This document shows positions 6,903 through 55,740 of a stretch of DNA of 64,000 nucleotides, in pieces. The first letter of the stretch is position 1; each line of letters begins with the position of its first letter. Below the pieces are notes generated by a model that saw nothing but the letters and a program-made list of their open reading frames with translations, made no database searches and was not told the origin of the DNA. The translations under genes and the position numbers were made by a program. The stretch comes from Escherichia coli (lineage in GTDB: Bacteria; Pseudomonadota; Gammaproteobacteria; Enterobacterales; Enterobacteriaceae), in assembly GCF_024700885.2 (NCBI RefSeq), contig NZ_CP117014.1; one strand, written 5' to 3'.

Positions 6903-7436
6903 ATGAAATTCTCCAAATTTTCTGAGTTGGTGAATCGTATTTTGTTGAATCGTATTTTGTCCAACAACCACAGCCATCGTCGCGATATGGATGTAACGAT
7001 CGTTGTTCATTCGCCTGGCAGCATTGGTTCAACACCCTCAGTTGAGGTTCAGTCAATTCACGCTGGTTTTGATTGGGATTCCGGGAAAGTGCTGATTTTC
7101 CCAGCACAGCCACTGACCACTCTAACACCAGAACAGATTACTGATATTACTGATAGTGTGCGCAAAGGTCAGTCCTGGCACGCATATCAGGAATACAAGA
7201 AGCATAAAGAGCAGTTGGAAAAATTATCGATTGAACTTGATACCGCAAAACAGCGCATTGCAGAGCTGGAGAGCAATCGCGCGGCGCTGGCGGCGGAGCA
7301 TGGTATTCAGATTGCAATAAATGAACTGCTTGCTCTGGCCCCGCGTCTGGATAAACGAGCGGTGGATGCACTCTCTGTGGCTGTGGAGCACCTGTGTAAA
7401 CTGATTAAGAAGGAGGCAGTCAGTGAGCAAAATTAA
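6903..7436 (+). CDS. Ead/Ea22-like coiled-coil protein
   Basis: ELESNRAALAAEHG motif; ATG at 6903 with RBS chosen over the upstream alternative start. Confidence 0.4.
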   Translation: MKFSKFSELVNRILLNRILSNNHSHRRDMDVTIVVHSPGSIGSTPSVEVQSIHAGFDWDSGKVLIFPAQPLTTLTPEQITDITDSVRKGQSWHAYQEYKKHKEQLEKLSIELDTAKQRIAELESNRAALAAEHGIQIAINELLALAPRLDKRAVDALSVAVEHLCKLIKKEAVSEQN

Positions 7437-24392: not shown

Positions 24393-24468
24393 TGGTGGCC
24401 CCTACCGGACTTGAACCGGTGACCGTGCGATTATGAGTCGCCCGCTCTAACCACTGAGCTAAAGGGCC
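24393..24468 (-). tRNA. tRNA with CAT anticodon, most like tRNA-Ile2 (lysidine, reads AUA)
   Basis: GGCCCTTTAGCTCAGTGGTTAGAGCGGGCGACTCATAATCGCACGGTCACCGGTTCAAGTCCGGTAGGGGCCACCA; cloverleaf folds; closely resembles E. coli ileX as recalled. Confidence 0.75.
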
Positions 24469-24897
24469 AGATTACTGTTAATTACGCTTACGCTTTTTGC
24501 CAGAACCGCGTAAGGCTTTTGCCGCTTGCTCTACCCCGTATGCAACCACCAGCAGAAACAATAATGTCCACTCCGGGTTTTTATCGGCAAACGCCCAAAA
24601 ATCCATCACTTGCAGCCACCTTTTAAGACAAAACGCCATTGCTGTTAGGTTGCGGTGCCGGGCGCCTCCCGGTGACGTTAACCAGTTAACAATTAACGCC
24701 GGATCACTTATGGATTCTCGTTACGCCAGTAAAAAGACCACCTTTACTGTTTTAACTGTTCCGCGTGCGCTTAGCCGCATTCACCGCAATGGTAAGAGCA
24801 TTTGGCTGACTGGGCGGCGATGACGCCTGTACGCATTTGGTGATCCGGTTCTGCTTCCGGCATTCGCTTAATTAGCCAAATACCCTTAATGTTGCAC

Positions 24898-24984
24898 TGG
24901 CGGAGAGTAATGGAATCGAACCATCATCGCTTGCGCAATGGGACGGTTTTCAAGACCGCTTGAGCACCATGCTCCCTACTCTCC
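24898..24984 (-). tRNA. tRNA-Ser (anticodon TGA) with long variable arm
   Basis: GGAGAGT...GGTCTTGAAAACC...GGTTCGATTCC...CTCTCCGCCA; 87 nt. Confidence 0.7.
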
Positions 24985-25438
24985 CGTTATTGTGGCGACC
25001 GGTGCTGATCTCCGGCTTGCGGTTATTTCAGACTCTCACGGGCGTTTAATTGCCCCGCCGAACAGCTCTTTTCCGCAATAGCTGCAATGTCTTTCGCGCA
25101 TCAGCCTGCGCATTCACCACAATGTTGAGAACACTGGTTGTCACGCTGCAACGCAACATTTATTCGTAGATTGGGATATGACCCCGTTACGCCAGTGTTC
25201 TCAACGTTGTAGTGCCGGTTACGGTTCCGGCCAGACCTCTTCCTCAACGGGGTGTTCTCCATACGGACTACCGTTTATTGGTCGTTCCTGCGGTTTATGT
25301 TGTGAAGCCAGATGCTTATCTTCTGGTTGCTTCAAAGAGCTGCACTTCATCACAACGGTAAGAGCATTTATGGCTCGCATCGCGGGAAAAAGCCCACGGT
25401 AGAGAGTCGAACTCTACAAATGCTCTTACCTGTTGTGT

Positions 25439-25514
25439 TGGTGCCGGTTAACGGGATCGAACCGCTGACCATTCGCTTACAAAGCGACTGCTCTACCAAC
25501 TGAGCTAAACCGGC
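25439..25514 (-). tRNA. tRNA-Thr (anticodon TGT)
   Basis: GCCGGTTTAGCTCAGTTGGTAGAGCAGTCGCTTTGTAAGCGA...GGTTCGATCCC...AACCGGCACCA. Confidence 0.7.
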
Positions 25515-25518
25515 AATT

Positions 25519-25605
25519 TGGTGGGGAGTGATGGAGTCGAACCACCCGAGTCGCAATGACAGTAGATTTACAGTCTACCCCGCTACCCCTACGGACTAAC
25601 TCCCC
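25519..25605 (-). tRNA. tRNA-Tyr (anticodon GTA) with long variable arm
   Basis: GGGGAGTTAGTCC...AGACTGTAAATCT...GGTTCGACTCC...CTCCCCACCA. Confidence 0.7.
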
Positions 25606-25610
25606 TAAAT

Positions 25611-25687
25611 TGGCGATGGTGGGTGGATTCGAACCACCTACCGAAAGCTTAGAAGGCTGCTGTTCTATCCTACTGAGCTACACCATC
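25611..25687 (-). tRNA. tRNA-Arg (anticodon TCT, reads AGA)
   Basis: GATGGTGTAGCTCAGTAGGATAGAACAGCAGCCTTCTAAGCTTT...GGTTCGAATCC...CACCATCGCCA; anticodon loop CTTCTAA like argU; stem slightly degenerate. Confidence 0.6.
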
Positions 25688-38755: not shown

Positions 38756-39168
38756 AGTTACGGCCTCACTAACAGGTTTAACAACCTGCCACCCGCTGTC
38801 AAACAGGTGGCAGGACGTGACAGGGTTGACAGACTGGCGTTAGTGAAACCAGCAGGCCGAAGCCTCCCCATCACGCCCCACCATAATTCGGGCGTAACGC
38901 GGTTTACGGACACAAAAATACCGCAATATCGGAAATCTGCGGTTGTCCGCACTAACATTCAGGCTGTCAAACCCGGTCGCAGAATTTGCTACGACGGCAT
39001 GAATATAAGCCTGAAAACATGGAAGATCAACTAAAAATTTCAGCAATGGATGACTTCAGTCGATGATGCAGATCATACATTCCGTTTTAGAAACAGCAAA
39101 TTAATTTTCTAACATAAATAATCGGCCGAGCATTTTCCGATCATTGGGATGTTTTGTAGACACACAGG

Positions 39169-47609: not shown

Positions 47610-49534
47610 TAAGCACCTCCCTGCTGAATTTCAGCCAGAATGTTGATCAGGTAGTCAACTGCTGCACCAACAGTGGCTTCGTTCTCGTCGTATCGACCTG
47701 CGCTGATTAGAGCGTTTGCTGCTTCCTGCACATGATCAAGTTCAGCACTGATGACCGTCAGATCGCGGGATGTAAACTGCTCCGGCACGGATTTCAGGTA
47801 CTCCAGTGCTTTATCTGCCTCCTGATCAGCTTCACTTGCTGATTCACCAGCTTCTTCTGGCTCCGGCTCCTGTTCTGGTGCTGGTTGTGGTTGTGATTCC
47901 GGCTCAACCACATGCTCTGCTTTTACTTCGCTTGAATGATTTTGAAGGGCGTTATACACGTCCATAATGAAAAGGTTCTCCCCATCACCAAGTGGATACG
48001 CCACGTTTGGAAACGCTTTGCGGAAAAGAATTTTCACTTGCGCCTTGAATGTTTTCAGGTCACTGCCAAACAGGTCTACATAGCCATCAATATGTTTCGA
48101 CATGCTGGACACAACCAATTGGCCTGCAAAATCTTTCAGCTCATCTTCATCAGGAAGATAGAGCAACTCGTACTGGCTGACTTCTTCATCTGTCAGTTTA
48201 CGGTCATACGTAATGATACCGTGACGAGCATATTCGTAATACTGATCAGCCTGGTCAGGACGATCAAGCACGGCTTTATTTCCATCCGGCACAGCACCAA
48301 CACCAGCCGGGCGAGATTGAAGTGCATAGTGGTATTTACCTACATCCTGGCTCTCTGGTTGTGATACTGGGTTCGTCTCGGGGTCTGTCTGTGGTGGTTC
48401 GGGGTCTTCCTGCTGGCCTGGTAACACATCAACTTTATATTTATCTGCGTTATGCTCTCGGTAGGCTTTAAGTAATTTGGTTGCAGCATCTGCCAAACTG
48501 CCTCCTTTGACAGCACTGGCATCAATACTGAATTTACCTTCAGGTGCTACTATCGTAACGAAATTGTCACTGCCGGACGTGATATAATTAACTTCAGCGC
48601 CATTATCCAGCACTGTTTTTCCGTCAATGGCAAGATTATGTTTTACATGTCGCAGCTGGTCACTAAACGCTCGTTCCTTCGTTTTTTCACCTTTAGCAGA
48701 CAACAATTTATCGCGTTTTTCTTGTAATTCCTCGTTGATGGCTTTCTGGGCATCAAGTTTTTTTTGCATCTCCGTAAGAGCAGCACGCTTTTCAGTCAGC
48801 CCACGTTGCGCAACGTCCACCTGATCAATCATTATTGACCGTTCTTCTGCCAGTTTATCTGCTTCATTGAGATAACTCTCAATATCTGCCTTCATTTTGT
48901 CCTGGCGCTCTTTTGCTTTCTTAAATTTTTCGCTGTTACGCTCAATCAAATTAGATAGCGCCTGGCATACCTGGCTTAAAGAAACATCTCTCCCACCAAT
49001 CGGGGCGACAACGTGAGTTACGTTACGCTTATTAAGTAAAAACTGAAATGCAACAAGCTCGTCGTTACTCTTTATTTTTGCCCCGTCAGCTGTTGGAGAG
49101 TGGAAAATTATGCTTGTACTCTGCCCGTCAGTAAGTGGTATCTGCGCGGTCAAAACAGGGATATTAGCTACCCGACGTACACGACCGATAATCGCACCAC
49201 CAATACAATTACGTCCATTTTCATCGGTCCCGGCTTCATCAGTCCCTGCCATAATATTCGTACCATTCAGGCCACGATTCAGCGCACGGACGAAAGCTCG
49301 CATTGTTTGGGCTAACCGAATTCTGGTTGTAGTTATGGACTCAAACATAGCTTCGTCAGACACAACCAGAATTTCATTGCCCATATAGGCAAGCTCAATA
49401 TCTTCTAAGGTCGCCGCCTCAAAAATCAGGTCATCTTCGCTTAATTCTTCTGAAGACCAGCGACTTGGCACATAGCCGGGGATCGTATCAGCAAAAGTAG
49501 ACTGAATATTAATTCGTAAAGGATTGTTAATCAT
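47609..49534 (-). CDS. DarA-like internal head/anti-restriction protein
   Basis: About 641 aa from ATG 49534 (GGAGG RBS); P1 DarA about 639 aa as recalled; coiled-coil centre, acidic Pro/Glu-rich linker. Confidence 0.45.
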   Translation of the reverse strand: MINNPLRINIQSTFADTIPGYVPSRWSSEELSEDDLIFEAATLEDIELAYMGNEILVVSDEAMFESITTTRIRLAQTMRAFVRALNRGLNGTNIMAGTDEAGTDENGRNCIGGAIIGRVRRVANIPVLTAQIPLTDGQSTSIIFHSPTADGAKIKSNDELVAFQFLLNKRNVTHVVAPIGGRDVSLSQVCQALSNLIERNSEKFKKAKERQDKMKADIESYLNEADKLAEERSIMIDQVDVAQRGLTEKRAALTEMQKKLDAQKAINEELQEKRDKLLSAKGEKTKERAFSDQLRHVKHNLAIDGKTVLDNGAEVNYITSGSDNFVTIVAPEGKFSIDASAVKGGSLADAATKLLKAYREHNADKYKVDVLPGQQEDPEPPQTDPETNPVSQPESQDVGKYHYALQSRPAGVGAVPDGNKAVLDRPDQADQYYEYARHGIITYDRKLTDEEVSQYELLYLPDEDELKDFAGQLVVSSMSKHIDGYVDLFGSDLKTFKAQVKILFRKAFPNVAYPLGDGENLFIMDVYNALQNHSSEVKAEHVVEPESQPQPAPEQEPEPEEAGESASEADQEADKALEYLKSVPEQFTSRDLTVISAELDHVQEAANALISAGRYDENEATVGAAVDYLINILAEIQQGGA

Positions 49535-50147
49535 GCTCATCCTCCAGGCGCGCGATTTCTTCTTTAAGAGCACGTGTCTTAGCTACTTCCTGAGACAAGG
49601 CAGCTTTAACGTTACCCGTATCTTGCATTACTTTGTCTGACTTGCTCTGGAGTTTAGACAGTTTGTCGTTAGCATTAGCGATATCTTCACGGAGTGCATC
49701 ACGTGATTCTTTCGCTTCAGCTAATTTCTGAGCGTTAGATTTAACTCCCTGCCGCTTCTTATTTCCGTCATCAATATTTTTTGCTGCACGAGCAAGTTTT
49801 CGAGCTAATGACTTCTGGAAAGAAGTTGCTCCGCGATTAAATAAAGCCGCAAGAGATTGCCCCAAAGCCGACATTGTTTTTACTGGCTTGAACGGTACTG
49901 TTTTACCATTCAGTTTGATCCCAGATATATCACCGGTATCGTTAACCTGAACTTCCATTGTCTGTTCATCAATACCAATAAGGGTAAATGTGCGCGTCAT
50001 GATCCCATCTTTCTTCCTGCCATTACTTGCAGGGATCACCCTCGCTATCTTGTAACCACCTTTGCTGATTTCTTTGACGAGTTTTGCCAGCCCCTTTTCG
50101 TTTAACTCATCATAATTAAGAAGAACATAATTATTCTTATTTGACAT
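49527..50147 (-). CDS. Hdf-like protein
   Basis: 206 aa from ATG 50147 (AAGGAG RBS); coiled-coil; position between lydB-like and darA-like. Confidence 0.35.
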   Translation of the reverse strand: MSNKNNYVLLNYDELNEKGLAKLVKEISKGGYKIARVIPASNGRKKDGIMTRTFTLIGIDEQTMEVQVNDTGDISGIKLNGKTVPFKPVKTMSALGQSLAALFNRGATSFQKSLARKLARAAKNIDDGNKKRQGVKSNAQKLAEAKESRDALREDIANANDKLSKLQSKSDKVMQDTGNVKAALSQEVAKTRALKEEIARLEDEHD

Positions 50148-50583
50148 CCCAGTCTCCTTCACGCTTTTCGATCGTAAACTGGCGCTCTATGCAGTCATTG
50201 ATAGGGAAAATGCGATAAAGCGGATTCAGTCGGCAGTTACCGTTAGTCAATGTGACTTTCAGATCCCACTTCGTTGGCTCAAGATATTTCGTATCGATGA
50301 GCAAATACTCTTCTCTCTCACCGCGTTTTGAGGCGTCAACTGGTCGCGTTTTCCCTGAAATAACCACAGATGGATTTTTCAGGTCTTGCAACCAATATTC
50401 GATTTGAGCATTGCTGACCCAGCTTCGCTTAACACGTAGCGAAACAGGAAATGCTATAGCGGATTCTTTCACTACAGCGTCACCAATACTCAAAATCTCA
50501 ACACTCTTGCGACGAAAAATGAAACGGTCAATGATGGCAACAAATGCCATGATAAAAATGAAATAATTTCCAAAGTTACCCAT
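50137..50583 (-). CDS. LydB-like (antiholin position)
   Basis: 148 aa with N-terminal hydrophobic segment; directly after the holin candidate. Confidence 0.35.
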   Translation of the reverse strand: MGNFGNYFIFIMAFVAIIDRFIFRRKSVEILSIGDAVVKESAIAFPVSLRVKRSWVSNAQIEYWLQDLKNPSVVISGKTRPVDASKRGEREEYLLIDTKYLEPTKWDLKVTLTNGNCRLNPLYRIFPINDCIERQFTIEKREGDWDVK

Positions 50584-50909
50584 TATTTCTCTCCACCTTT
50601 TCCCCCATTCGCTATTACGCTTAAGAGATTCAAGACGTAACTAGCTCTGGACTTCAAGCCCTGTAAAATTTCACTACCGTTGTTACTGGCAATCAGAACA
50701 ACGCAGAAAATGATACCTTCAGGCCATTCTTGGCTAACCGCCACCCCATACCCCGCAAGCCCGGCTGTTACCGCAGTAAACAATTCACTCGCAAGATTGA
50801 GCAGGGACGCAGAAATGCGCCCGTCTCTAACTCCGAGAAGGAATACGCCGGTTCCACTTAGTAGGGATGTTATGACTACTACAGCCAGATTTTCATAATC
50901 TGCAAACAT
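50583..50909 (-). CDS. Holin candidate (LydA-like)
   Basis: 108 aa with multiple hydrophobic helices; first gene of the operon next to the invertase. Confidence 0.45.
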   Translation of the reverse strand: MFADYENLAVVVITSLLSGTGVFLLGVRDGRISASLLNLASELFTAVTAGLAGYGVAVSQEWPEGIIFCVVLIASNNGSEILQGLKSRASYVLNLLSVIANGGKGGEK

Positions 50910-51012
50910 ACCCCTCCAGAAATAACATCTAATGCGCCACTAACTTAGTCAGTTTGTTATTTCCTTACAGGACATCTTCTAGGATCGTATCCTTAGCATA
51001 CAAGGGAGACAT

Positions 51013-51048
51013 ATGCTTATTGGATACATTCGCATATCAACAAATGAT
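51013..51048 (+). pseudogene. Relic of a second invertase 5-prime end (MLIGYIRISTND...) in inverted orientation
   Basis: About 80% identical to the first 36 bp of the intact invertase gene (51698-51663) but frame diverges immediately. Confidence 0.5.
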
Positions 51049-51125
51049 GATGCGCCGCGCGATAAATGCACTCTATCTTGTGCGATAAATGGCATCCACG
51101 CGGCGTTTCATTATTTGAAAAAGAA

Positions 51126-51698
51126 TTACATTTCAGGTTGCGTTATGACAGTCCCAACAGGGTGATAGCGGTAGATCGTTGACAGTCCAATATCATAGAT
51201 AATTGCCAGCCGCTTTCTGTCATACCCTTTCTGGAGCAATCTTGCGATCTGCTCATGCTGCTCCTTCGTCAGTTTCGGGCGACGTCCTCCAACTCTTCCT
51301 TGTGCTCGCGCAGCAGCCAGTCCTGCCAGCGTGCGCTCAACTATCAGTTCACGCTCCATTTCTGCCAGTGCACCCATCATATGAAAAAAGAACCTTCCCA
51401 TCGGAGTGCTGGTATCGATTGAATCCGTCAGACTGCGAAAATTGACACCTTTTGCGCGTAACTCTTCTGTGAGAGCAATGAGGTGTTTCATTCTTCTACC
51501 CAACCGATCCAGCTTCCAGACCACCAATGTATCCCCTCTTTTAAGGCACTTTAAAGCGCGTTTCAGGCCTGGTCGTTCCGACTTGGTTCCGCTCATTTTG
51601 TCCTCAAAAATCTGTTCACATCCTGCGCACATTAATGCATTGCGTTGCAAATCTGTGTTTTGGTCATTTGTTGACACACGTATGTAGCCAATCAGCAT
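51126..51698 (-). CDS. cin: Serine DNA invertase (Cin/Gin/Hin family)
   Basis: MLIGYIRVSTNDQNTDLQ...LVVWKLDRLGR...C-terminal HTH (GLSTIYRY); about 190 aa from ATG at 51698; adjacent invertible segment. Confidence 0.85.
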   Translation of the reverse strand: MLIGYIRVSTNDQNTDLQRNALMCAGCEQIFEDKMSGTKSERPGLKRALKCLKRGDTLVVWKLDRLGRRMKHLIALTEELRAKGVNFRSLTDSIDTSTPMGRFFFHMMGALAEMERELIVERTLAGLAAARAQGRVGGRRPKLTKEQHEQIARLLQKGYDRKRLAIIYDIGLSTIYRYHPVGTVITQPEM

Positions 51699-51742
51699 TA
51701 AAAATACTCCCTTTTGAGTGGTTAAAGTACTGAGATAATGTG

Positions 51743-51768
51743 GGGAGGATTTGAGAGATAAACGTTGG
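51743..51768. repeat. Left crossover site (cix/gix-like) of the invertible segment
   Basis: Reverse complement TTCTCCCAAACC-AA-CGTTTATCTCTC; inner half-site identical to the right site. Confidence 0.65.
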
Positions 51769-51769
51769 T

Positions 51770-52123
51770 TTGGGAGAAGCGGCAAAACGGAATGTGGGCA
51801 CAGGAGATAATCAGATACCGGATATGGGAGCATTCGCTTCTGGTTCGGGATGGTTCAGGCTACCAGGTGGATATATTGTTCAGTTTGGCACTTTTTCAGG
51901 AAACACGACCCGCTTTATCAGTGGACACTTCCCTATACCATTCCCTAATCGGCCGATGGTTTCAGTCAGTGTTATGTCTGATGCCGTTCAGTCAGACCCG
52001 TCGAATCCTGCCCCGCATGTTTTGTCTGTAAATTTTGAACATATCAGTAATTCAGCGTGGCGTGTGGCAACCAGTGATATCTCACAGCAATACAGATTCA
52101 GTTATATTTCGATAGGATGGTAG
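51770..52123 (+). CDS. Alternative tail-fibre C-terminal exon (Sv-prime), currently silent
   Basis: Starts directly at the left crossover site; no own ATG; would fuse in frame to ...YLGLGE of the fibre after inversion. Confidence 0.6.
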
Positions 52124-52566
52124 AAATGCAGAAATATATTTTCAGTGCCGATAAAAATGCGTTTTTCCCTGTGGAGCTTAAAATCGCTTATCAGGAATCC
52201 GGCGAATGGCCCGATGATGGAATCGAAATTGACGACACTGTTGCTGCCGAATTTATGAAGGAAGCACCAGAAGGAAAATACAGAGGTGTCATCGACGGAA
52301 TGCCTGCATGGATTGATATTCCACCGCCAACTCATGAGGAACAAATTGCCGCAGCCGAACTGAAAAAGCAGCAATTGATTAATCAGGTCAACGAATACAT
52401 AAACAGTAAGCAATGGCCTGGTAAAGCGGCGATTGGTCGCCTGAAAGGTGAGGAACTGGTGCAATATAATTTGTGGCTGGATTATCTGGACGCACTGGAA
52501 CTGGTCGATACTTCCAGTGCGCCAGATATTGAATGGCCTACGCCTCCGGCAGTTCAGGCCAGATGA
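52117..52566 (+). CDS. Alternative tail-fibre assembly chaperone (U-prime)
   Basis: 149 aa; C-terminal [23 protein letters not shown] parallels the other Tfa ([25 protein letters not shown]). Confidence 0.65.
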
Positions 52567-53131
52567 CATCAGGCGCGGTGCTGGTATCTGTTGCCTCCAC
52601 CGCGTCAATGTAATCCAGCACAGCGTTAAGTCGGGTGGTTTCTGCCTGCGTCAGCTTCCGCCCGGCCCGTAATTTCAGCTGAATCAGACTGATGGAAGCC
52701 ATTGCAGCATCAATCAGCGACTGGCGCTTTACTTCTGCCGCGTCTAGTGCGGCGCTATGCTGTGCCTCGGTATCCGTCACCCATTTCTCACCATCCCATT
52801 TATCGTATGGCGTTAACGGTGAAAGCGTGACATAACCGTCTTTGATGGCACCGATATAATCCACTGTAACAGCTGCGCCATTTTCTGTTGAGTAAACAGT
52901 CTCATTGCGATGGTCTTCTTCATGGCTCCATCCCTTACCCGTAAATACTGCCACTCTTCCCGGAATGTATTCGCCCGGGTCAATACCAGTGGAACAGGCG
53001 GGCATACTTACGCCAGTATTAATATATTCATCAGACCAGCCAGTATATTCATACGTAACTGCCTCATAATAAAAACAACGCATATTACCCGGTACTGTAG
53101 CCAGCCCATTTTCATCAAAAACAGGTTTCAT
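52538..53131 (-). CDS. Tail-fibre assembly chaperone (U), expressed orientation
   Basis: 197 aa; MKPVFDENG...Tfa-type sequence; directly downstream of the fibre gene. Confidence 0.7.
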   Translation of the reverse strand: MKPVFDENGLATVPGNMRCFYYEAVTYEYTGWSDEYINTGVSMPACSTGIDPGEYIPGRVAVFTGKGWSHEEDHRNETVYSTENGAAVTVDYIGAIKDGYVTLSPLTPYDKWDGEKWVTDTEAQHSAALDAAEVKRQSLIDAAMASISLIQLKLRAGRKLTQAETTRLNAVLDYIDAVEATDTSTAPDVIWPELPEA

Positions 53132-55740
53132 TATGCAGCCCTCACAATATAATTAAAGGCGATGTTACGTGGACGGTTTTCATTAGCTGTTGGCACGACA
53201 CGAGAGGCGTCGAATCCAAGGTCATCGGTTTTGCCTATATCAGTTGTGTTATTCGGCATTCTCGCTGATCGTGTTCCTGCATCGTAAAAAGCCCCTCTGA
53301 TTGCATCAAAAGACATACCGATCCCGCCATCTGCGAATCCCTCAATATTTCTTATTGCATCCCCCTGTGAAGATAATAATTGTCGCCCGGCATCCACTCC
53401 ACGTCCGTCATCCCAGCCACGAATAAATTCACCGCGTAAATCAGGCAATTTATTTGTCGGATAAACCTTTGCCAGTTCCGGGTATTCTTCAGCAGAAAAA
53501 GCCGCACCGTTGCATTTCAGCCAGCCTGTTGGCGGAGTGGCGGAAGGCCACGGAACAGGCACACCAACGGGTAATGCCGAACCTTCTCCCAAACCAAGGT
53601 AATTGAGGACATCTTTTATACTGCCCTTAGCGATAATAGCGCGACCAATAGCTGTAAGGGTTGTCAGCGCTGCGCGGTCTGCTCCGGTAAAATAAGGCAA
53701 CCGATCTGCTGCAGTGGCAAGTCCTGCCAGAGCAGTGAGCGTGGCATCTGCCGGTTGTTTTCCGTTTGCCAGATCGTATGCAGCCTTGACAGCTTTCGGT
53801 GTAGCGGCCAGCACTTCAGACGTGCTGTTAGTGGCACTACTGAGCTGAGTGATGCCTTTCGCTGTCAATGAAGCTGTTGGCACACCAGTGATCTGATTCC
53901 AGGGATGTATATGATTGGATGGTGCCTTTCCGGCTGCTAGATCGTATGCAGCTTTAACCGCTTTTGGAGTTGCAGCTAATGTTTCAGAAGTGCTGTTGGT
54001 GTCGCTACTGAGCTGAACTATCCCTTTTTGTGTCGTGGTTGCATCCTGGGCTGTGTACTTCCCGTTAGCCAGGTCATATGCAGCCTTGACAGCTTTCGGT
54101 GTAGCGGCCAGCACTTCAGACGTGCTGTTAGTGGCACTACTGAGCTGAGTGATGCCTTTCGCTGTCAATGAAGCTGTTGGCACACCAGTGATCTGATTCC
54201 AGGGATGTATATGATTGGATGGTGCCTTTCCGGCTGCTAGATCGTATGCAGCTTTAACCGCTTTTGGAGTTGCAGCTAATGTTTCAGAAGTGCTGTTGGT
54301 GTCGCTACTGAGCTGAACTATCCCTTTTTGTGTCGTGGTTGCATCCTGGGCTGTGTACTTCCCGTTAGCCAGGTCATATGCAGCCTTGACAGCTTTCGGT
54401 GTAGCGGCCAGCACTTCAGACGTGCTGTTAGTGGCACTACTGAGCTGAGTGATGCCTTTCGCTGTCAATGAAGCTGTTGGCACACCAGTGATCTGATTCC
54501 AGGGATGTATATGATTGGATGGTGCCTTTCCGGCTGCTAGATCGTATGCAGCTTTAACCGCTTTTGGAGTTGCAGCTAATGTTTCAGAAGTGCTGTTGGT
54601 GTCGCTACTGAGCTGAACTATCCCTTTTTGTGTCGTGGTTGCATCCTGGGCTGTGTACTTCCCGTTAGCCAGGTCATATGCAGCCTTGACAGCTTTCGGT
54701 GTAGCGGCCAGCACTTCAGACGTGCTGTTAGTGGCACTACTGAGCTGAGTGATGCCTTTCGCTGTCAATGAAGCTGTTGGCACACCAGTGATCTGATTCC
54801 AGGGATGTATATGATTGGATGGTGCCTTTCCGGCTGCTAGATCGTATGCAGCTTTAACCGCTTTTGGAGTTGCAGCTAATGTTTCAGAAGTGCTGTTGGT
54901 GTCGCTACTGAGCTGAACTATCCCTTTTTGTGTCGTGGTTGCATCCTGGGCTGTGTACTTCCCGTTAGCCAGGTCATATGCAGCCTTGACAGCTTTCGGT
55001 GTAGCGGCCAGCACTTCAGACGTGCTGTTAGTGGCACTACTGAGCTGAGTGATGCCTTTCGCTGTCAATGAAGCTGTTGGCACACCAGTGATCTGATTCC
55101 AGGGATGTATATGATTGGATGGTGCCTTTCCGGCTGCTAGATCGTATGCAGCCTTGACAGCTTTCGGTGTAGCCGCTTTTCTTTCTTCTGTACTGCTTAT
55201 TTCATTAGAGAATTCGACACCAACAGCCCGGTTAACCCGGTATTTAAGCACAATCATTTCTTTAGTCACAGCCGTTGCGCCGCTAGGCACGATAACTCGA
55301 CATAATTCAATTTGATTCTGCCCAATAGTATTGTCCGTACGCGCGTAAATTCTTGCAGCACTGACAGAAGATGCGCTATCTACCTGTGTCGTTTTTACAC
55401 CATGTTCAAAATTGGCTTCCAGCACAATAATGTTGGTAGCCCCTGCCTTTACCGAGACAGTCACATCTTCTATTTGCTGAACGGATATCTGAACATTATT
55501 TACATCTACTGAAGCAGCCCCTTTACCTTCGGAGTTTTCAGAAGTTATGCGGACACTCAACCCTGTGCCGGGAACCGGTTCAAATCCACAGTAAAAGCCA
55601 GGCAAAACAATATTTTTTAGTTTTCTGTTAAGAGCCAGACTACTATAGAGTTCGAAATATTGAACATCAGCAAGCAACGACTGTGAGACACCAGAGGATA
55701 GTGTCATTATGTTGTTCGTTTTATCAGCCCCCATAATCAA
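53131..55740 (-). CDS. Tail fibre protein S with tandem-repeat shaft and invertible C-terminus
   Basis: 869 aa; repeated ATPKAVKAAYDLA units; C-terminal GEFIRGWDDGRGVD...NIAFNYIVRAA; right crossover site inside the gene. Confidence 0.8.
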   Translation of the reverse strand: MIMGADKTNNIMTLSSGVSQSLLADVQYFELYSSLALNRKLKNIVLPGFYCGFEPVPGTGLSVRITSENSEGKGAASVDVNNVQISVQQIEDVTVSVKAGATNIIVLEANFEHGVKTTQVDSASSVSAARIYARTDNTIGQNQIELCRVIVPSGATAVTKEMIVLKYRVNRAVGVEFSNEISSTEERKAATPKAVKAAYDLAAGKAPSNHIHPWNQITGVPTASLTAKGITQLSSATNSTSEVLAATPKAVKAAYDLANGKYTAQDATTTQKGIVQLSSDTNSTSETLAATPKAVKAAYDLAAGKAPSNHIHPWNQITGVPTASLTAKGITQLSSATNSTSEVLAATPKAVKAAYDLANGKYTAQDATTTQKGIVQLSSDTNSTSETLAATPKAVKAAYDLAAGKAPSNHIHPWNQITGVPTASLTAKGITQLSSATNSTSEVLAATPKAVKAAYDLANGKYTAQDATTTQKGIVQLSSDTNSTSETLAATPKAVKAAYDLAAGKAPSNHIHPWNQITGVPTASLTAKGITQLSSATNSTSEVLAATPKAVKAAYDLANGKYTAQDATTTQKGIVQLSSDTNSTSETLAATPKAVKAAYDLAAGKAPSNHIHPWNQITGVPTASLTAKGITQLSSATNSTSEVLAATPKAVKAAYDLANGKQPADATLTALAGLATAADRLPYFTGADRAALTTLTAIGRAIIAKGSIKDVLNYLGLGEGSALPVGVPVPWPSATPPTGWLKCNGAAFSAEEYPELAKVYPTNKLPDLRGEFIRGWDDGRGVDAGRQLLSSQGDAIRNIEGFADGGIGMSFDAIRGAFYDAGTRSARMPNNTTDIGKTDDLGFDASRVVPTANENRPRNIAFNYIVRAA
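53584..53609. repeat. Right crossover site (cix/gix-like) inside the tail-fibre gene
   Basis: TTCTCCCAAACC-AA-GGTAATTGAGGA, inverted relative to the left site; segment between sites about 1.84 kb. Confidence 0.65.
53761..55160. repeat. About 4.6 copies of a 300-bp tandem repeat inside the tail-fibre gene (copies 2-5 perfect)
   Basis: Identical text recurs at 54061, 54361, 54661, 54961; first copy at 53761 slightly divergent; encodes a 100-aa unit. Confidence 0.85.

Follow-up and report, generated by a model that had tools for sequence, protein, structure and literature searches.

Why should a complete DNA invertase gene lie next to the inverted first codons of another one? This arrangement is found in a P1/D6-like phage-plasmid of Escherichia coli, represented by a stretch of 64,000 nucleotides (nt) from contig NZ_CP117014.1, which is referred to as the window and whose numbering is used for all positions of the switch locus; crossover sites were likewise counted within these 64 kb. 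The locus is a DNA-inversion switch of the Gin/Hin/Cin/Pin class for phage host range, and the small inverted fragment beside its invertase gene is a remnant of the plasmid's original Cin switch, which was probably cut by the end of a transposable phage and then replaced. It is likely that the present switch works in the manner of Gin or Pin and that it arose by transposition, recombination between fibre genes and a swap of the invertible segment. That a transposable phage brought the switch in on its end has good support, if no proof.

The cin relic and the adjoining phage terminus

The relic (51013-51047, plus strand) consists of the first 35 nt (codons 1-12, MLIGYIRISTND) of a resident cin gene of the P1/D6 type. 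A first-pass annotation of the window had recorded an inverted relic of an invertase start with a length of 36 bp at this place, and the relic is indeed real and inverted, but comprises 35 nt. The intact plus-strand cin of phage D6 agrees with the relic in 33/35 positions (0 matches expected by chance), whereas the start of the resident invertase gene (51664-51698) reaches 29/35, corresponding to 83% complementarity in inverted orientation. The relic is contiguous with D6-like DNA, the window from 49500 to 51047 being 98.8% identical to the corresponding lydA and cin-upstream DNA of D6, and the homology to D6 (lydA, cin upstream region, cin) ends at 51047, where D6 has nt 35 of its intact cin. 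Relatives of the window contain longer relics that share its private substitutions, with 53 nt being left in NZ_CP122510 and approximately 300 decayed nt in pEc-050-T5-ESBL_3. The match to D6 cin, the contiguous D6-like DNA and the longer relics in relatives therefore identify the fragment as the stub of the original cin and not as a duplication. With this, the ancestral duplication that had been suggested in the first-pass annotation falls, while the other suggestion made there, a decayed second switch, comes closer: the fragment is a remnant of the plasmid's original Cin switch, which was replaced, probably after the insertion of the phage end. Recurrent '1-88' matches in 22 plasmids, which had been considered as a common breakpoint at 51047, were dismissed, as these plasmids run on into a longer cin relic.

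The stretch in front of the relic (50910-51012, plus strand) is, according to its homology to D6, the orphaned upstream region of the original P1/D6-type cin, including the area of the promoter and the ribosome binding site. In the P1 GenBank record the cin promoters and the ribosome binding site lie in the equivalent stretch. A consensus scan of 50910-51012 yielded no strong sigma-70 match. The relic itself holds just the first 17 nt of the region that is annotated as the cin enhancer in P1, and it is a scar with no predicted function.

Directly behind the relic, positions 51048-51125 form the right (invertase-side) end of a BcepMu-like transposable phage, which starts with 5′-TGATGCGCCGCGCGATAAATGC and contains a second CGATAAATG box as well as a strong hairpin. 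Read inward, the terminus TGATGCGCCGCGCGATAAATGC agrees with the right end of Mu (TGAAGCGGCGCACGAAAAACGC) in 15 of the first 20 nt, and the second CGATAAATG box is found at matching spacing. Over 51048-51125 there is 100% identity to the end of a transposable prophage of 37 kb that lies in ycaL, and the longer stretch from 51047/51048 up to 51779 shares 99.6% identity with a prophage in the chromosome of ST131-type E. coli. Among sequences from IMG/VR and fetched loci, this terminus abuts at least 12 unrelated flanks, with the homology always stopping at the T of the TG. Because the TG terminus is mobile, Mu-like and found with at least 12 flanks, position 51048 can be assigned to the end of a transposable phage that was probably inserted in cin.

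The joint between both parts is spanned by a predicted hairpin (51041-51117; -33.3 kcal/mol, z = -4.95), in which the phage terminus (GCGCCGCG...CGCGGCG) forms the stem. In an extended form of this hairpin the last bases of the relic pair with TCATTATTTG, and a U-rich run then lies on the plus strand. The hairpin could act as a stop for transcripts that start at the orphaned cin promoter and run antisense into the invertase gene. No canonical terminator was detected by the consensus scan.

The invertible segment, its fibre gene and its invertase

The segment that is switched (51765-53597) measures 1,833 bp from core to core, which bears out the segment of 1.84 kb with inverted sites and a common inner half-site that had been read from the window before. 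Its left crossover site, L, comprises 26 bp on the minus strand (51753-51778) and reads GAGAGATAAACG-TT-GGTTTGGGAGAA on the plus strand, with the core TT at 51765-51766, and TTCTCCCAAACC-AA-CGTTTATCTCTC on the minus strand. The right site, R, comprises 26 bp on the plus strand (53584-53609), reads TTCTCCCAAACC-AA-GGTAATTGAGGA and is located within the reading frame of the fibre gene. Both sites thus have an identical inner half, TTCTCCCAAACC, and an AA core in inverted orientation. The 14-mer TTCTCCCAAACCAA occurs exactly twice in the window, in inverted orientation, with 0.01 occurrences being expected by chance, and an inverted repeat of 18 nt (51762-51779 and 53583-53600) is 94% complementary.

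In the present orientation the tail-fibre gene (53131-55740, minus strand, 869 aa) matches tail fibre families of PHROG and is accompanied by a U-like tail-fibre assembly chaperone (52538-53131, minus strand; PHROG tail fiber assembly, 1.4e-82). The opposite strand of the segment carries a silent alternative fibre C-terminus, Sv′, without an own start codon (51770-52123, plus strand), which is similar to tail-fibre and virion-protein PHROGs in their C-terminal parts, and an alternative, U′-like assembly chaperone (52126-52566, plus strand; PHROG tail fiber assembly protein, 1.5e-61). The orthologue of the latter in plasmid pF719-4 is annotated as tail fibre assembly protein, and this chaperone is expressed solely after inversion. 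The two fibre C-termini, including the expressed one ending in ...NIAFNYIVRAA, and the two chaperones, as named in the first-pass annotation, are therefore all present, and all of them match tail-fibre or fibre-assembly PHROGs. A simulated inversion of the 1,833 bp keeps the constant part of the fibre (719 aa, ending in ...NYLGLGE) in frame; the current product has 869 aa and ends in ...NIAFNYIVRAA, the inverted product has 833 aa, and each C-terminus is followed by its own chaperone.

Natural evidence for the inversion comes from two sister plasmids from French broilers, pF719-4 and pF801-4, which are equal in length (92,643 bp) and whose switch system is 98% identical to that of the window. 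Over 10,823 nt the two plasmids exhibit 1,339 differences as deposited, and 0 differences after the homologous 1,833 bp have been re-inverted. As pF719-4 and pF801-4 differ just by this core-to-core inversion, the switch works in nature, and the crossover sites recombine as predicted. Together with the in-frame simulated inversion, this substantiates the invertible tail-fibre switch that had been proposed for the locus. Mechanistically, the invertase would pair the two inverted 26-bp sites, cut at the AA/TT core and invert the 1,833 bp, whereby the constant 719 aa of the fibre would be joined in frame to one of the two C-termini. A population of lysogens would then release virions with two receptor specificities.

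The fibre gene is composed of an N-terminal part of approximately 195 aa that resembles S of D6, of tandem repeats, of the conserved ...NYLGLGE across site R and of a variable C-terminus. Amino acids 6-223 show 90% identity to S of D6, and at the DNA level the homology to D6 sets in again at 55154, where the repeats have their upstream edge. The repeats (53762-55164, minus strand) form a tandem array of 4.7 copies of a 300-bp (100-aa) unit (Tandem Repeats Finder: period 300, 99% matches), in which the 100-aa units, with the motif ...NSTSE.LAATPKAVKAAYDLA..., are identical to each other. It is precisely the upstream edge of this array (55154-55177) at which the P1/D6-type fibre is joined to the foreign one. 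The number of copies varies in close relatives, since in plasmid p1_000200 a repeat stretch of 647 bp fits the array of the window in three 300-bp registers (about two units), and vB_EcoM-673R5 aligns to at least five repeat copies of the window's array. This points to a recent amplification and to a variable length of the fibre shaft.

The enzyme of the switch is a serine DNA invertase of the Gin/Pin/Cin/Hin family with 190 aa (51126-51698, minus strand), which was assigned by Pfam and PHROG. It contains the Resolvase domain PF00239 (1.1e-50) and HTH_7 (PF02796, 2.3e-12) and matches the PHROG family 'DNA invertase' with 1.3e-94. In an alignment with Gin, Cin and Pin, the catalytic motif is kept as YIRVSTNDQ (Y-x-R-V-S-T-x-x-Q), and the KLDRLGR motif is present as well. 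The label 'Cin-type', which the gene had been given in the first-pass annotation, holds at the level of the family, but closer relatives exist: the protein is 100% identical to the invertase of the BcepMu-like chromosomal prophage, and its identity to Pin, Gin and Cin of P1 amounts to 75.5, 72.6 and 71.5%, respectively. It is 84% identical to the enzyme type of a p15B-like relative of the window (L008), and exactly the same protein is encoded on at least 1000 contigs. The catalytic domain of the window's invertase reads HMMGAL in its helix region, in contrast to HVMGAL in Gin, Cin, Pin and the enzyme of L008, and its length of 190 aa goes along with a distinct C-terminal tail (...VGTVITQPEM).

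A recombinational (Fis) enhancer is predicted, from homology, in the 5′ part of the invertase gene (51609-51680, minus strand), a region that corresponds to the enhancer annotated at nt 19-90 of cin in the P1 record. Over these 72 bp the window is identical to the annotated P1 enhancer at 54/72 positions, and it is therein as conserved as the corresponding region of Mu gin (55/72). An enhancer that is bound by Fis in the 5′ coding region of the invertase gene is probably required for inversion.

Donor prophage, sister plasmids and the proposed route

The chromosomal relative of the terminus is a BcepMu-like prophage of approximately 37 kb in strain 4/1-1 (positions 801-37815 of a locus from NZ_CP023844). 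Its genes include those for an rve-type DDE transposase, for Gam and Mor and for a DUF935 portal, as well as P2-type tail genes. An ExeA-family protein is encoded downstream of the transposase, at the position that MuB holds in Mu, and the early genes are divergent from the late genes, as in the layout of BcepMu. The prophage in ycaL has TG...CA ends and a 6-bp target duplication (GAAGAA), and the homology to K-12 stops at the start of ycaL. This insertion is present in 359 of 5,426 complete E. coli genomes, with ycaL being intact in the others. The prophage is located just after the start codon of ycaL, for which the annotation now gives another start, 18 nt further upstream and within the phage end; the fibre gene of the prophage itself is listed as a pseudogene. 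Independently, a preprint on ST131 isolates names Bcepmuvirus among the prophage genera and describes one prophage, typed as Burkholderia phiE255-like, that carries an invertase.

How the end of such a prophage could have become part of the window's plasmid can be deduced from the sister plasmid p1_000200 (NZ_CP022228), whose flanks are 99.4-99.7% identical to the window. Between nt 35 of cin and the fibre repeats it contains approximately 3.2 kb which are colinear with the prophage end (98.7 and 95.2%) and which comprise the terminus, the invertase gene, a three-site invertible region, a chaperone gene and the C-terminal part of the fibre gene into the repeats. On both sides of this block p1_000200 shows homology to D6, up to nt 35 of cin and again from the N-terminal approximately 195 codons of S. 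Next to their invertase genes, the prophage and the sister plasmids possess one more crossover site, the third, together with an additional fibre-tip cassette of 438 bp that has no chaperone of its own; the window lacks both. In principle, such three-site relatives might form three alternative fibre C-termini.

The proposed route would start from an ancestral P1/D6-like plasmid with cin reading rightwards from lydA, into which a BcepMu-like phage would have inserted after nt 35 of cin, with its invertase-proximal end towards lydA. The fibre gene of the phage and the S gene of the plasmid would then have had the same orientation and common repeat motifs, so that recombination between them could have removed the remainder of the phage and of cin together with the old C segment. 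The product would be a hybrid fibre with the N-terminus of the plasmid and a foreign shaft and tips. The structure of p1_000200 is what is expected to remain after a single recombination of this kind following transposition. At a later time, the DNA between the crossover sites would have been exchanged for an e14/SKA5-like segment, and the number of sites would have changed from three to two. We infer that the events took place in this order.

Evidence for the exchange comes from the segment and its sites. Between the sites the window does not resemble the prophage; the identity to SKA5, an e14-like phage with a tyrosine integrase, is 97.5% and limited to 51760-53597, i.e., to the DNA between the crossover sites. 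The inner half-sites of the window are of the SKA5/e14 type and the outer half-sites of the prophage type; for site L, the outer half is that of the invertase-proximal site in the prophage and the sister plasmids, and the inner half is that of the SKA5/e14 sites. This mixture of half-sites and the confinement of the SKA5 identity to the segment argue that the segment was exchanged at the crossover sites. The change from three to two sites is explained equally well by a deletion of the 438-bp cassette between direct sites and by a swap that spanned sites 1 to 3.

Several observations weigh against this origin by transposition and fibre recombination, or against the activity of its product. The window contains neither the other phage end nor a transposase nor a target duplication. 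Likewise, no P1-like plasmid with a complete transposable prophage in cin was found in PLSDB, where the Mor-proximal prophage end matched only five records, none of them with a P1-type replicon; the intermediate is for this reason hypothetical. In NZ_CP122510.1 (5054-5233 of the locus) the terminus lies flush against nt 53 of cin, accompanied by a 17-nt tandem duplication of cin nt 1-17. The junction of the window (51013-51158) is the same except that exactly 17 nt are missing beside the TG; the plasmid NZ_CP122510.1 has lost its invertase gene beyond the last approximately 30 nt. A single insertion does not explain the junction at nt 53, two independent insertions 18 nt apart are unlikely without a target preference, and the alternative, a deletion that ended exactly at the terminus, likewise requires an explanation. 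In L008 the foreign block ends with the same 18-nt terminus (TGATGCGCCGCGCGATAA), but approximately 75 nt of unrecognisable DNA lie between the decayed cin and this terminus. A derivation of these 75 nt from cin was rejected, as their match was no better than that of shuffled sequences. The p15B-type variant of the terminus (GATGCGCCGCGCGATAAGT...) had a single match in IMG/VR, which lies in an L008-like, P1-like context and thus provides no independent flanks. Regarding the activity of the switch, a consensus scan found no convincing match for a promoter of the invertase gene, and the inversion that was seen is that of the 98% identical sister plasmids, from which activity of the window's own molecule would be extrapolated.

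Three other explanations have to be weighed against this origin. It would be extremely improbable for the relic to stem from a duplication of the 5′ end of the resident invertase gene or from a second invertase that decayed in place, even if its inverted orientation and its 83% complementarity to the resident start fit such an idea. The duplication is already contradicted by the closer match to D6 cin; moreover, the D6-like DNA with which the relic is continuous extends over 1.5 kb and takes in the region upstream of cin, the longer relics of relatives align with cin and not with the resident invertase gene, and the latter belongs to a separate, prophage-derived block that starts at 51048. Acquisition of the cassette by ordinary illegitimate or homologous recombination with a prophage, in which 51047/51048 would be a breakpoint at microhomology, has somewhat more in its favour and is still rather unlikely. 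At the joint, D6 cin has the 5 nt AATGA in common with the chromosomal DNA that flanks the prophage copy, joints in mosaic phage genomes often look like this, and no plasmid with the full prophage was found. Nevertheless, a part of this microhomology originates from the ycaL flank and not from phage DNA, and the breakpoint falls, to the base, on the TG end of a transposable prophage, an end that is known with at least 12 unrelated flanks and with a target duplication.

The remaining explanation concerns the state of the switch and not its origin. The invertase or the sites of the window's molecule could be inactive, with the switch being frozen and fossilised in the way of the Pin region that e14 has in K-12. 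The missing promoter-like site for the invertase gene would fit, and so would the outer half-sites, which are poor palindromic partners of the inner half-sites, and the presence of two sites instead of the three that are found in the donor and the sister plasmids. It is nonetheless improbable, because the invertase is full-length and 100% identical to a protein that is kept on at least 1000 contigs, the reading frames of the two fibre alternatives and of the two chaperones are open, and the same sites have recombined between pF719-4 and pF801-4. A switch of the Gin/Pin type that entered the plasmid by transposition is the preferred interpretation of the locus.

The surroundings of the switch are those of a P1-family plasmid. 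Homologues of darA, hdf, lydB and lydA are located upstream on the minus strand, and S, R, gene 16 and baseplate genes follow downstream; approximately 360 plasmids in PLSDB, each of roughly 90 kb and mostly from E. coli, have the backbone in common with the window. Positions 24393-25687 and 38803-39008 contain a cluster of five tRNA genes (Met, Ser, Thr, Tyr, Arg) and a C4 antisense RNA, which has an a1/b1 target and indicates a P1-type immunity region ImmI. In the sister plasmid p1_000200 (1439-2647 of the locus from NZ_CP022228.3) a gene for a TnpB-family RNA-guided endonuclease lies amid the genes of the darA region, where the window has no counterpart.

Relation to Min and to other inversion switches

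The closest precedent is Min, the multiple-inversion system of p15B, a P1-related plasmid of E. coli 15T-, which has six sites and overlapping segments. Reportedly, Min was described by Sandmeier and colleagues in 1992 as a substitution homologous to Pin of e14. The window and p15B have in common a P1-family backbone, a Pin-like invertase gene in reverse orientation in the place of Cin and a cin remnant by lydA, and they differ in that the window has two sites and one segment of 1.83 kb, that its cin remnant consists of 35 nt lying flush with the phage terminus and that its cassette, being 99.6% identical to a chromosomal prophage, is a recent import. The P1 GenBank record notes an identity of 89% between P1 31570-31832, which comprises the cin promoter and the first 173 nt, and nt 7147-7408 of p15B, beside min. 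Reverse-oriented Min-like invertases together with a truncated cin have also been reported from P1-like plasmids and were read as impaired switches (Venturini et al., 2019; PMC6906374). The locus is a Min/Pin-type substitution in a P1-family plasmid, for which the cin remnant has a known precedent in p15B. No description of a foreign block that starts at a transposable-phage terminus was found in the literature that was covered, which excludes the 1991 and 1992 papers on p15B.

With the Cin/C system of P1 and D6 the locus shares its position between lydA and the S-R-16 tail genes, the logic of alternative S C-termini with U and U′, and the enzyme family. It is, however, not an orthologue of it, since an intact cin reading from lydA was not found and just nt 1-35 are left. 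In P1, cin reads towards the segment and has cixL at its 3′ end, whereas the invertase gene of the window lies on the opposite strand and encodes a protein with 71.5% identity. The C segment of P1 is 4.2 kb in size and has long terminal inverted repeats, in contrast to the 1,833 bp of the window, where the longest inverted repeat is 18 nt.

Concerning Gin and the G segment of Mu, the likeness lies in the order of fibre gene, invertible segment, invertase gene and terminus, in the invertase gene reading away from the segment and in an attR-like terminus. Unlike Mu, the donor prophage has a rve-type DDE transposase, divergent early genes, P2-type tails and a 6-bp duplication, lacks mom and possesses three sites; save for the invertase gene, no relationship to Mu exists at the DNA level. 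The Pin/P segment of e14 and the segment of SKA5 have the identical inner half-sites (TTCTCCCAAACC-AA) and also represent two-site segments of about 1.8 kb, with that of SKA5 being 97.5% identical. Yet, flanks and outer half-sites differ, both elements use a tyrosine integrase, and the constant parts of their fibres are unrelated to S of P1.

It might tentatively be asked whether BcepMu-like transposition into cin, followed by fibre recombination, is a repeated route to new host-range switches in the P1 family, including Min of p15B, with the 5′ part of cin as a preferred target; at present this is no better than a possible, rather doubtful generalisation. Preferred targeting of this part of cin, which contains the Fis-bound enhancer, would explain the two flush junctions 18 nt apart, at nt 35 and nt 53.

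As a switch, the locus is textbook biology. Nevertheless, inversion switches of this kind determine which hosts are open to temperate phages and to phage-plasmids, and the latter also spread resistance genes. At the locus, the passage of such a switch from one element to an unrelated one can be followed base by base, with a transposable phage as the source of invertase, sites and fibre tips, the common fibre repeats letting the fusion to the resident fibre occur and the crossover sites acting as joints for the exchange of whole segments, and it offers a concrete, testable mechanism for the long-known substitutions of Cin by Min and Pin.

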